Origin: an uncultured Bacilli bacterium
GTDB lineage: Bacteria; Bacillota_I; Bacilli_A; RF39; UBA660
Direction: 5' to 3'
NCBI GenBank assembly: GCA_947585915.1
Contig: CANPXJ010000001.1
Location: 1-51,730 of the forward strand
Length of the DNA stretch: 51,730 nucleotides
The stretch's first letter is position 1; every line of letters begins with the position of its first letter. Under the pieces are notes generated by a model. It was not told the origin of the DNA and ran no database searches. It was given only the letters and a program-made list of their open reading frames with translations. Shown piece after piece: positions 27,206 through 29,986 of this stretch. The translations under genes were made by a program, and so were the position numbers.

Positions 27206-29986
27206 TTATTTAACCACGATATTAACTATTTTATTTGGAACAACTATCACTTTAATTATTTCTTTTCCATCTATATGTTTTTTAGCTTTTTCATCTTGTA
27301 AAGCTAAAGTTTCTAGTTTTTCTTTTGGAGTATCTTTTTCCACTGCTATAGTACTTCGTAATTTGCCATTAACAGAAATAGCAATATTAATTTCTTTATC
27401 AACCATTTTTGCTTCATCATATTTAGGCCAAACCTCAAAACATAAAGGAGAATAACCAATTTCTTCATTTAATTCTTCTGTAATATGCGGAGCTATTGGA
27501 TTAAGTAATGTTAAAAGCAAATGATAATCATCTTTAGTTATACTTTCCTCATCATCATAAGCATTAGCTAAAATCATTAAAGCTGCTACGGCTGTATTAT
27601 AACCCATATTTTCGATATCATCTTCTACTTTTTTAATAGTCTTATTAATAATTCCTTCTAATTTTTGCGAATAACCTTTTTCATTATTCACTTTATCTTT
27701 TAAACGAATAATTTTATCAATAAAGCGTTTACAACCTTTAAGTGAGTCTGTGCTCCAAGGTGCATCTTGTTCATAGTTACCCATAAACATTTCATATAAA
27801 CGAAGAGTATCAGCACCATATTCTTTTACAATATCATCGGGATTGATAACATTTCCTTTGGATTTACTCATTTTTTCATTATTAGAACCTAAAACCATAC
27901 CATGAGAAACACGCGTCCATATCATTTCTTTTTGCGGAACTAAACCGATGTTGTATAAAAACTGAACCCAAAAACGTGCATATAATAGGTGTCGAGCCGT
28001 ATGCTCCATTCCCCCATTATACCAATCAACTCTATGCCAATATTTCATAGCATCCATTGAAGCAAATTCTTTATTATTATGAGGGTCCATAAATCTCAAG
28101 AAATACCAAGAAGAACCAGCCCAGTTAGGCATTGTATCAGTTTCTCTTTTAGCTGGGCCACCACATTTTGGACATTTACAATTAACCCATTCTTCAATTT
28201 TAGCAAGTGGACTTTCACCTGTATCAGTTGGTTCATATTCTGCTACATCAGGAAGAAGCAATGGTAATTCTTCTTCCTTCATTGGTTGCCATCCACATTT
28301 TTCGCAATAAATCATCGGAATTGGTTCGCCCCAGAATCTTTGACGAGAGAATATCCAATCACGCATTTTGTAATTAGTTTGTTTTTGACCACATTTATTT
28401 TTTTCTAACCAAGAAATCATTTTGTTAATGGCTTCTTCTTTATTTAAACCATTTAAATCAGCCGAGTTAATATGAATTCCATCTCCTACCATAGCTCCTG
28501 GGCCTTTAGCATATTCATAAGTTTTGCTATGTAACTCGTCTTTAATTTCTTTTAAGATAACATCTTCTTTTACCCACTCTACTTTTGTATCTACTTTCTT
28601 GTTATCTTTTAGTTTAAAGAAAAAACCAGTACTTTCAATATTAAAATATTTATTATCTTCTTGATTATGATGATTAATTTTTGGTAATTCATAAACTAAC
28701 TCTAAATTAGTATAGCCAGTTTCTTCTTCAATTTCTCGTTTAGCACATGCAAGTGGTGTTTCTCCCTCATTTATAGTGCCTCCAACAAATAATCTTTCTT
28801 CCCCATTTTTGATTGTTAAATATTTATCTTCTTTTTCATCATATACAATAGCTACAATCGAATTTTTCTTTTCTTCATTCTCATGAGGAGTACCGGTAAC
28901 TTCTTCTAATACTTGAACAATAGGAATGTTAAATTTTTGAGCAAATTCATAATCGCGTTCATCGTGAGCTGGAACAGCCATAATAGCACCTGTTCCATAA
29001 CTAGCTAAAACATAATCACTAATATAAATTGGAATTTTTTCTTTATTAACTGGATTAATAGCATAGGCACCCGTAAATACCCCAGTTTTTTCTTTATTAA
29101 GTTCAGTTCTTTCTAAATCATTTTTTAAAGCACAAGCTTTTTTATATTCTAAAACCTCACTCTTTTTATCAGGTGTCGTAATTATATCAACATATTTATG
29201 TTCTGGCGCTAAAACACAATAAGTTGCTCCATATAAAGTATCGCATCTAGTTGTAAAAACTGTGAAAGTTAAATCATGCTTATCTATTTTAAAGTCAACA
29301 CAAGCTCCCGTTGATTTACCAATCCAATTAATTTGCCCTAATTTTACTTTTTCAGCAAAGTTCGTATCTTTTAGACCAGTAAGTAAATCCTCAGCATAAT
29401 CCGACATTCTTAGCATCCATTGTGATTTTTCTTTTTGAATTACGGGATGGCCACAACGTTCACAAACTCCTCCTGCTGAATCTTCATTAGATAAAACTGT
29501 TTTACAATTTTCACACCAATTAACCGGTACTTTTTCTTTGTAAGCCATACCATGTTTATAAAATTGTAAAAACTGCCATTGCGTCCATCTATAATAATCT
29601 GGATCAGTTGTCGAAAATTCTCGGCTCCAATCAAAAGAAAATCCTATTGATTGCATTTGTTTTTTAAAAGTAGCAATATTTTTTTTAACTGCTTCTTTAG
29701 GATGAATATGATTTTTTATGGCAAATTGCTCGGCTGGGGCACCAAAAGCATCCCATCCCATAGGATATAAAACATTATAACCTTTCATTCTTTTTAAACG
29801 AGCCAAAGAATCTAGAGCTGTATAACTTCTAACGTGCCCTACATGTAAACCTGCTCCTGAGGGATAAGGAAATTCAACTAAAATATAATATGGTTCCTTT
29901 TTATCCCCTGTTACAGCCTCAAAAACTTTATTTTCTTCCCAATATTTTTGCCATTTAGCCTCTATTTTTTTGTGTCCTTTTTCCAT
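27206..29986 (-). CDS. leuS: Leucine--tRNA ligase carrying an inserted Nudix domain
   Basis: HVGH and KMSKS motifs, CP1 editing motif [12 protein letters not shown], zinc CxxC pairs. At 926 aa it is longer than typical bacterial LeuRS because of the insertion at residues ~362-495. Confidence 0.95.
   Translation of the reverse strand: [926 protein letters not shown]
28502..28903 (-). other. Nudix hydrolase domain inserted in-frame in LeuRS
   Basis: Perfect Nudix box G-x5-E-x7-REUxEExGU: G403 [22 protein letters not shown] (nt 28712-28780). Flanked by beta-strand-like [29 protein letters not shown]. Lies between the conserved LeuRS blocks [24 protein letters not shown] and [14 protein letters not shown]. 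Confidence 0.85.

Follow-up and report, generated by a model that had tools for sequence, protein, structure and literature searches.

A Nudix domain inserted into the CP1 editing domain of leucyl-tRNA synthetase in uncultured gut Bacilli, and its relatives in other synthetases and stand-alone CP1 proteins

Bacterial leucyl-tRNA synthetases (LeuRS) with a CP1 editing domain are known from the structures of the E. coli (4AQ7/4ARC), T. thermophilus (2BYT/1OBH), and S. pneumoniae (4K47) enzymes. Here, we analyze a LeuRS of 926 aa encoded on a 51.7-kb stretch of DNA from an uncultured Bacilli bacterium (contig CANPXJ010000001.1, positions 1 to 51,730; hereafter the window). Its gene, leuS, is T-box-regulated and occupies positions 27206–29986 (this and all further window coordinates refer to the reverse strand, unless marked with a plus sign). 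The window protein shares with the solved enzymes the overall fold, the HIGH, KMSKS, and T-rich and Asp editing motifs, as well as the anticodon-binding and C-terminal domains. However, while the solved proteins have a loop of 7–14 residues between the strand following the AVPAHDxRD helix and the GDGIHINS strand, the window protein carries a Nudix domain of 136 aa at this position. None of the solved or curated LeuRS has a Nudix domain at this loop.

Most aminoacyl-tRNA synthetases known to carry an additional catalytic domain are eukaryotic. Among the class Ia enzymes, one such combination has a curated model, namely IleRS with the N-acetyltransferase domain GNAT (NCBIfam NF040702, ileS_w_GNAT); there, GNAT is combined with IleRS, whereas here LeuRS is combined with Nudix, and the NCBIfam matches listed (best 25 of 33) contain no curated LeuRS-Nudix model. 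With respect to the insert, RppH and the asymmetric Ap4A hydrolases (4S2X/7SP3, 3I7U, 1F3Y) have the same minimal Nudix fold of ~130–160 aa with a complete Nudix box, and they constitute its best structural and profile neighbours. In contrast to these enzymes, to which it is 10–20% identical, the insert is embedded in another enzyme rather than free-standing. The clade around the window protein also shares the X-loop Tyr of the hydrolases of diadenosine polyphosphates (ApnA), but the window allele lacks it. Finally, the trans-editing factors AlaX, ProXp/YbaK, ThrRS-ed, and DTD are autonomous synthetase editing domains, and so are several stand-alone CP1-Nudix proteins discussed below (P0144, P0124, P0130, and L020). 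Unlike the described factors, the latter derive from the CP1 of LeuRS and contain Nudix as well, and the editing motifs of several are degenerate.

A review from 2024 depicts CP1 as a cis domain only (PMC11295145), and tRNA synthetases or ligases are not mentioned in a 2017 survey of the Nudix clan (PMC5389931). In the full-text literature open to searching without subscription, we came across neither a synthetase-Nudix fusion nor a natural free-standing CP1; within that scope, this agrees with an earlier note on this DNA, whose author was not aware of a described LeuRS of this architecture. In databases, such proteins bear generic names, i.e. ‘class I tRNA ligase family protein’, ‘leucyl-tRNA synthetase’, or ‘NUDIX domain-containing protein’. 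The fusion is undescribed rather than unseen, and both of its parts come from known families.

The window protein as a whole scores 959.7 bits against TIGR00396 (leuS_bact; cut-off 548.4), with the match broken in two by the insert, and Pfam recognizes class I catalytic, LeuRS editing (PF13603), and anticodon-binding domains together with NUDIX (PF00293). All canonical LeuRS motifs, which the earlier note had called intact, were located: the HVGH form of the HIGH signature at residues 48–51 (29834–29845) and the KMSKS signature at residues 705–709 (27860–27874), both by motif scan, and the CP1 editing motifs TTRCDT and AVPAHDERD at residues 245–250 and 337–345, respectively. The insert divides the CP1 editing domain into a first part (residues ~220–361; 28904–29327; PF13603 spans residues 220–372) and a last part (residues 498–535; 28382–28495), which was aligned to residues 145–176 of the 4k47 CP1. 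When the full-length protein was modelled with AlphaFold2 from an 80-sequence alignment, its best matches in the PDB were E. coli and T. thermophilus LeuRS (Foldseek E ~1e-70). A search of the 51.7-kb window gave no second leuS, so that this gene is indeed the sole copy there, as had been stated. Judged by its sequence, leuS is the housekeeping, T-box-regulated LeuRS of an uncultured, low-GC lineage of gut Bacilli, and we infer leucylation and editing by its product from the intact motifs, a ratio of non-synonymous to synonymous substitution rates (dN/dS) of ~0.03 outside the insert, and the probable Leu T-box.

The Nudix domain comprises residues 362–497 (28496–28903), as supported by PF00293, the CP1 alignment, AlphaFold2, and Foldseek. 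When taken alone, residues 362–495 (28502–28903) match PF00293 with 51.1 bits (E 1.8e-13; cut-off 21.1), and within the full protein the match amounts to 47.9 bits over residues 376–475. A regular-expression scan placed the Nudix box at residues 403–425 (28712–28780), where G403-x5-E409-x7-R417-E418-I419-x-E421-E422-x-G424-Y425 fits GX5EX7REUXEEXGU exactly; the six-frame translation of the whole window holds no other Nudix box. According to the CP1 alignment, just 7 residues separate the sequences flanking the insert in S. pneumoniae LeuRS (4k47), and 14 do so in the T. thermophilus enzyme; because so few residues connect them in solved CP1 domains, the true size of the insert is ~136 aa (362–497). 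The large insert reported earlier for the CP1 region, put there at ~130 residues, is real. The insertion point is a surface loop of CP1, ~15 residues past the Asp motif of the editing site.

Structure prediction supports this assignment. AlphaFold2 modelled the insert alone with a predicted local distance difference test (pLDDT) score of 89.5 and a predicted template modelling score (pTM) of 0.85, the box being carried by a helix at residues 411–423, and in the full-length model pLDDT ranges from 82 to 92 over most of the insert. Foldseek returned 446 PDB matches for the insert model at E<=0.001, and the best 50 of the 446 are all Nudix-fold proteins. In these models, the domain forms an independent alpha/beta/alpha module that projects from the CP1 loop and has both of its ends back at the insertion point. 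The central proposal of the earlier note, a complete Nudix domain placed in frame within LeuRS, is thus well supported by profile score, box, and predicted fold, and the AlphaFold check it had suggested yielded a confident Nudix domain off the CP1 loop.

Metagenome assemblies carry the general possibility of a mis-joined contig, which in this case would have placed a separate Nudix gene inside leuS. Beyond this generality nothing speaks for such an event, and we consider its probability negligible: the reading frame is continuous, the GC content across the insert is uniform (0.28–0.32), and the locus is syntenic in the related locus L081. Moreover, a full-length protein search listed 120 closest clusters of 73–100% identity and 926–940 aa, all with precomputed PF00293; these were drawn from NCBI, ENA, JGI, and Logan assemblies and have the insert junctions in common. 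The identical 926-aa protein is present on three contigs, and a 730-aa fragment (P0007), 100% identical over its length, on another. A scan of genomes (one per species) detected 34 loci with a full-length match to the insert (L001–L033 and L035), 32 of which are LeuRS with the insert at the site used in the window, the exceptions being L020, a stand-alone CP1-Nudix protein, and L030, a ValRS. In tblastn searches with the two LeuRS halves, the order N-terminal half, Nudix, C-terminal half was found in all 29 complete LeuRS loci; the remaining three (L006, L025, and L028) are broken off at contig ends. Since the 120 closest clusters and the 34 genome loci carry the insert, the fusion is no chimera, and the assembly artefact that had been named as a possible refutation can be discarded. 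An intein was likewise ruled out, given that the junctions lack the splicing residues looked for, namely Cys or Ser as first residue of the insert and His-Asn followed by Cys, Ser, or Thr at its C-terminal junction, and that the protein has no Hint or endonuclease match in Pfam. Two LeuRS-Nudix fragments, P0001 (161 aa) and P0002 (198 aa), end inside the Nudix domain despite lying on contigs of 86 kb and 29 kb, respectively; their stops are possible frameshifts, pseudogenes, or sequencing errors.

The hosts, as labelled, are uncultured Bacilli metagenome-assembled genomes (MAGs) from rabbit, human, ruminant, and other guts, some of them assigned to Erysipelotrichaceae or Tenericutes, and one related cluster is labelled Candidatus Onthocola, classed as Bacilli incertae sedis. 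Further labels point to Patescibacteria (Paceibacterota, Parcubacteria, Saccharibacteria) and to one Limnocylindria (Chloroflexota) MAG. This host list is biased, as the genome scan was seeded by the single pattern CA[KVQ]REIxEE (alignment A3). A word-indexed protein search with the insert alone gave two truncated fragments only and was uninformative.

Conservation of the insert argues for its function in the family. In 80 close relatives, residues G403, E409, R417, E418, E421, E422, and G424 never vary, and the overall conservation of the insert is similar to that of the anticodon-binding region. Among 25 distant synthetase-embedded copies (25–46% identity), the first Gly, the E of RE, the second E of EE, and the G are invariant, while E48, the R, and the first E of EE are conserved to at least 90%. 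We also compared the insert with the rest of the gene in six close pairs, using pairwise NG86 estimates of dN/dS. The values for insert and remainder were 0.047 and 0.033 (L021–L022), 0.071 and 0.063 (L012–L014), 0.116 and 0.050 (L001–L003), and 0.046 and 0.107 (L009–L011), respectively. Two pairs gave higher values for the insert: L001–L002 (0.37, on few substitutions, and 0.03) and the window paired with L081 (0.44 and 0.03). By these estimates, the insert is under purifying selection in most relatives, with the catalytic residues kept. Such selective upkeep of both the domain and its catalytic residues argues for an active hydrolase in the family.

The window allele is an outlier within this family. 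The nearest relative compared, P0004 (locus L081), is 97% identical, but 23 of the 30 alignment columns in which the two proteins differ fall in the insert. Counting substitutions, 13 of 134 residues changed in the insert and 7 of 792 outside of it (Fisher p 2e-7), and dN/dS of the flanks is 0.01 and 0.07, compared to 0.44 for the insert, at equal dS. The window protein alone lacks the conserved W at position 394 (W in 79 of 80 relatives) as well as a Gly-Gly (79/80). It has further suffered an allele-specific deletion of eight codons, the junction of which lies at 28586–28594 in the codon alignment with L081 (NLEEDENF there); the deleted loop of eight residues bears a conserved L (76/80 relatives) and conserved D, E, and F (79/80 each). 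Another change is shared by the window and P0004: the X-loop region (residues 439–445; 28652–28672) reads HHNQEDN, where relatives have HHYYAYNKD, and the Tyr pair at +16/+17 after the box is gone (N441/Q442 in the window). This pair is Y-Y in 78 of 80 close relatives, and 24 of the 25 distant relatives have an aromatic pair. Both the acidic loop residue and the aromatic pair are kept in essentially all other members of the distant alignment. By analogy with Glu120 of E. coli RppH, the lost D-E loop may normally provide a further metal ligand or the catalytic base. Together, these changes indicate that the 926-aa allele probably has a weakened or altered Nudix function, while its LeuRS part is under strong constraint. 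The earlier note had called the fusion functional. This term suits the clade, in which the box is invariant and purifying selection acts on the insert; it is less safe for the window copy, because the latter has lost conserved residues outside the box and its insert shows the raised dN/dS.

Which kind of Nudix enzyme was inserted can be narrowed down by comparison. RppH, MutT, YtkD, NudE, and other curated equivalogs were ruled out, as all scores are far under the cut-offs: the RppH equivalogs NF001936 and NF001938 give 25.3 and 20.6 bits against cut-offs of 118 and 116, and MutT (TIGR00586) gives 24–27 bits against 97.9. Nevertheless, no NCBIfam families are matched by more members than the RppH models (22/25 and 20/25), always below threshold; MutT, NudI, and dihydroneopterin-triphosphatase models also match weakly. 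When the profile was compared to sequences in the PDB, the best matches were, in this order, an E. faecalis Nudix protein of unknown function (2azw), the lupin Ap4A hydrolase (1f3y), and the decapping effector AvrM14, with dihydroneopterin triphosphatase, the MutT/nudix-family protein 2pqv, and the Aquifex Ap4A hydrolase at lower ranks, and Dcp2 further down. In the Foldseek search, E. coli RppH came first by E-value (4e-8), while the best superposition was obtained with the Aquifex Ap4A hydrolase (3i7u; template modelling score 0.72–0.80, root-mean-square deviation 2.5–2.9 Å); C-terminal domains of MutY were among the matches as well. These three independent comparisons converge on one group of characterised enzymes, namely RppH, Ap4A hydrolases, and decapping enzymes, and a pyrophosphohydrolase of the RppH/ApnA type is the best-supported mechanistic reading.

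The specificity of Nudix enzymes is shaped by the X-loop ~17 residues after the box, and a Tyr in this loop correlates with ApnA hydrolase activity (PMC5389931). The use of a Tyr ~16–18 residues after the box as an ApnA marker goes back to Dunn 1999, as summarised in PMC5389931. The marker, which is a correlate rather than a proof of activity, is present in the family and absent in the window allele. Dinucleoside polyphosphates are made by synthetases and broken down by Nudix enzymes, ApaH, or YqeK (PMC10148737). Because synthetases make these compounds and Nudix enzymes degrade them, our first guess for the substrate is ApnA or other dinucleoside tetraphosphates (Np4N), RNA caps included, which we put forward tentatively and at rather less than even probability. 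The earlier note had suggested the clearance of adenylylated by-products. Concerning Ap4A-type dinucleotides, this is a reasonable guess, because Ap4A hydrolases and RppH are among the characterised Nudix enzymes closest to the insert. Hydrolysis of aminoacyl-adenylates, in contrast, has been set aside as chemically unlikely, given that these compounds contain no P-O-P bond.

The association of this Nudix subfamily with synthetases extends well beyond the relatives of the window. An exhaustive HMMER search with the insert against 1.84 billion representative proteins gave 155 matches at E<=1e-3, and many of these are LeuRS that are just 45–57% identical to the window protein (by BLAST of the LeuRS halves). 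Some of these distant LeuRS carry the Nudix domain at the site of the window (P0148, P0203, P0219, P0238, and P0192), whereas others have two or three such domains. In the multi-Nudix proteins, the domains are located before CP1 (window residues ~205–240), in tandem at the CP1 site, and at the zinc-knuckle (~604–613). P0126, P0127, P0145, P0138, P0154, and P0164 are LeuRS of 1100–1280 aa whose two or three Nudix domains occupy as many as three sites; Pfam marks NUDIX three times in P0126, twice in both P0138 and P0154, and once, at 594–714, in P0164. Copies at different sites are 55–69% identical, e.g. P0203 (CP1) to P0127, P0126, and P0156 (pre-CP1), so the domain has moved or been duplicated between loops. 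Besides LeuRS, L030 (Ryanbacteria; 2612–4750 of that locus) is a ValRS (NF004349, 732 bits) that has its Nudix domain after the zinc-knuckle and before DPDTLDTWFSS, and P0257 is a second ValRS fragment with a Nudix domain of the same family at another site. The LeuRS-Nudix architecture is therefore a large family, visible in precomputed Pfam annotation, and not a one-off. Sequence comparison further shows that this subfamily is repeatedly associated with class Ia synthetases and CP1, across several lineages.

CP1 and Nudix also occur together outside of synthetases. L020, P0130, P0144, P0124, and P0133 are stand-alone proteins of 276–347 aa that start and end at the CP1 boundaries, and the sequence closest to the window insert is found among these proteins (51–56% identity). 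They represent real genes: P0144 has 12 cluster members on contigs of up to 22 kb, P0124 lies on a 66-kb contig, and P0133 on an 875-kb contig, the latter deposited as a ‘NUDIX domain-containing protein’ of an organism labelled Candidatus Aenigmatarchaeota archaeon. In several of these proteins, the CP1 editing motifs are shortened or degenerate while the Nudix domain is intact. P0144 displays the opposite pattern, with TTRPD kept and RGIKEE in the box instead of REUXEE. L020 (labelled Paceibacterota; 2706–3605 of that locus, ~300 aa) has an in-frame TGA at the position of the family-invariant Trp, which implies that UGA is read as Trp. A separate, free Nudix open reading frame follows it at 3598–4038, and Cas4/Cas1-like reading frames are found at 5930–7461. 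Two odd fusions contain the same Nudix family, P0150 and P0152: a 1318-aa protein of GNAT, Nudix, GNAT, and M17 aminopeptidase, and a histidine phosphatase (His_Phos_1) followed by three Nudix domains.

At the window locus, a T-box leader (RF00230; 99.3 bits, gathering threshold 93) lies upstream of the operon at 30365–30548. By eye, the specifier position in the alignment reads GAA-CUU-G, i.e. CUU (Leu), which is consistent with control by leucine. Between this leader and leuS is an open reading frame for a hydrophobic protein of 128 aa (29955–30341), which overlaps the start of leuS by 32 nt and is matched by a 125-aa gene at the same place in L081. No Pfam family was assigned to this protein at curated cut-offs (HemY_N is sub-threshold at 17.5 vs. 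31 bits). The T-box noted earlier is thus present, with a probable Leu specifier, but leuS is not directly behind it; as the 128-aa frame sits in between, the T-box seems to control a two-gene unit. Downstream of leuS is the gene of a VCA0040-like membrane protein, just past which there is a tRNA gene (26244–26317, +; 68.8 bits with Rfam). Divergent from the operon, positions 30714–31583 (+) encode a protein of 289 aa with a Gly/Asp/Tyr-rich N-terminal region, a Tim44-like domain, and a C-terminal zinc ribbon.

How might a LeuRS make use of a Nudix domain? Taken as a whole, the data are best explained by an acquired RppH/ApnA-type Nudix domain in the CP1 loop that is active in the family and altered in the window allele, a reading that we hold with about even confidence. 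An ancestor would have gained a minimal Nudix pyrophosphohydrolase domain (~135 aa) in frame in the short surface loop of CP1. In the family, the domain would hydrolyse a nucleoside-diphosphate-linked substrate in a Mg2+-dependent manner, as an active enzyme of the RppH, ApnA-hydrolase, or decapping type. Tethered at the acceptor-end side of class Ia synthetases, it would most likely act near the place where its substrates arise or bind, and candidate targets are dinucleoside polyphosphates (by-products of the Ap4A type and Np4N RNA caps) or a pyrophosphate-bearing end of RNA or tRNA. In the window allele, the box would be kept and the Nudix function altered or weakened. Several points weigh against this explanation. 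The matches to characterised families are far under their cut-offs (~25 vs. 118 bits for RppH), and the substrate is therefore not transferable by homology. LeuRS and ValRS are weak producers of Ap4A, which weakens the rationale of by-product clearance. The losses in the window allele may mean that its Nudix domain is no longer working at all. Finally, up to three copies per LeuRS, together with the unrelated fusions, would fit a promiscuous house-cleaning module equally well. Such a module forms the basis of another explanation, somewhat unlikely in our view, in which the domain is a passenger, that is a generic sanitiser of nucleotides (MutT- or NTP-pyrophosphatase-like), fused to essential synthetases, constitutively expressed in bacteria with small genomes, solely for co-expression or genome economy; it would occupy loops in which insertions are tolerated and would have no mechanistic coupling to aminoacylation, editing, or tRNA. 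It would agree with hosts from reduced-genome lineages (gut Bacilli MAGs and Patescibacteria), with the various sites and copy numbers, with members of this Nudix family that stand free or belong to unrelated fusions, with the weak matches to MutT, NudI, and dihydroneopterin-triphosphatase models, and with the erosion of the Nudix domain in a window allele whose LeuRS part stays strongly constrained. However, LeuRS and LeuRS fragments outnumber free Nudix proteins among the top matches of the insert in the 1.84 billion proteins, and the domain was identified in class Ia synthetases possessing CP1 or in CP1 domains on their own. In some of the stand-alone proteins, CP1 persists just as a reduced scaffold around an intact Nudix domain, which suggests that the association of CP1 and Nudix is itself selected.

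The same observations can be read in a more far-reaching way, which we consider unlikely: the repeated in-frame insertion into LeuRS (three sites, as many as three copies), ValRS, and free CP1 might reflect a new activity on the acceptor end of tRNA or on synthetase-bound nucleotides. Examples would be the unblocking or decapping of tRNA, proofreading at the nucleotide level, or control of alarmones, with the synthetase or CP1 as delivery platform. The hosts concerned are Patescibacteria, small-genome Bacilli, and, for one stand-alone protein, an organism with an archaeal label. A further explanation holds that the Nudix domain repairs or decaps tRNA ends by removing a pyrophosphate-linked block from the acceptor end, to which CP1 or the synthetase delivers the tRNA; the candidate blocks are a 3’-pyrophosphate of the toxSAS type, a 5’-triphosphate, an Np4N or NAD cap, and an ADP-ribose adduct. 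We regard this explanation as improbable. Its case is entirely inferential, although pyrophosphohydrolases of RNA ends and decapping enzymes (RppH, YtkD, Dcp2, AvrM14) are the characterised proteins closest to the domain, stand-alone CP1-Nudix proteins exist, and all insertion sites (CP1 hinge, CP1 loop, and zinc-knuckle) belong to those regions of LeuRS and ValRS that encircle the acceptor end in published complexes. Bacterial tRNAs normally have a 5’-monophosphate, however, and cleavage of a 3’-pyrophosphate by a Nudix enzyme leaves a 3’-phosphate, so that charging would still be blocked; in addition, no toxin or immunity genes were seen beside leuS in the window or in L081. It is highly improbable, in turn, that the domain is a non-catalytic appendage with a structural, nucleotide-sensing, or RNA-binding role, like the C-terminal domain of MutY or CFIm25. 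Active hydrolases typically retain a full box, which the known non-catalytic Nudix domains have lost, and here the metal-binding residues of the box (E409, R417, E418, E421, and E422) are invariant in the 80 close relatives and kept to at least 90% in the 25 distant ones. The MutY domains among the Foldseek matches, the missing residues outside the box in the window allele, and the RGIKEE of P0144-type stand-alone proteins would each suit a non-catalytic fold, and Nudix folds with non-enzymatic roles are known (PMC5389931).

Should the proofreading domain of a bacterial LeuRS indeed harbour a conserved hydrolase, this accessory activity would be of a new kind. As far as we found in the literature searched, the stand-alone CP1-Nudix proteins would constitute the first natural free-standing CP1 homologues on record. 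The Nudix domain could link translation to the metabolism of nucleotide alarmones or RNA ends in little-understood, uncultured bacteria with small genomes from gut and groundwater.

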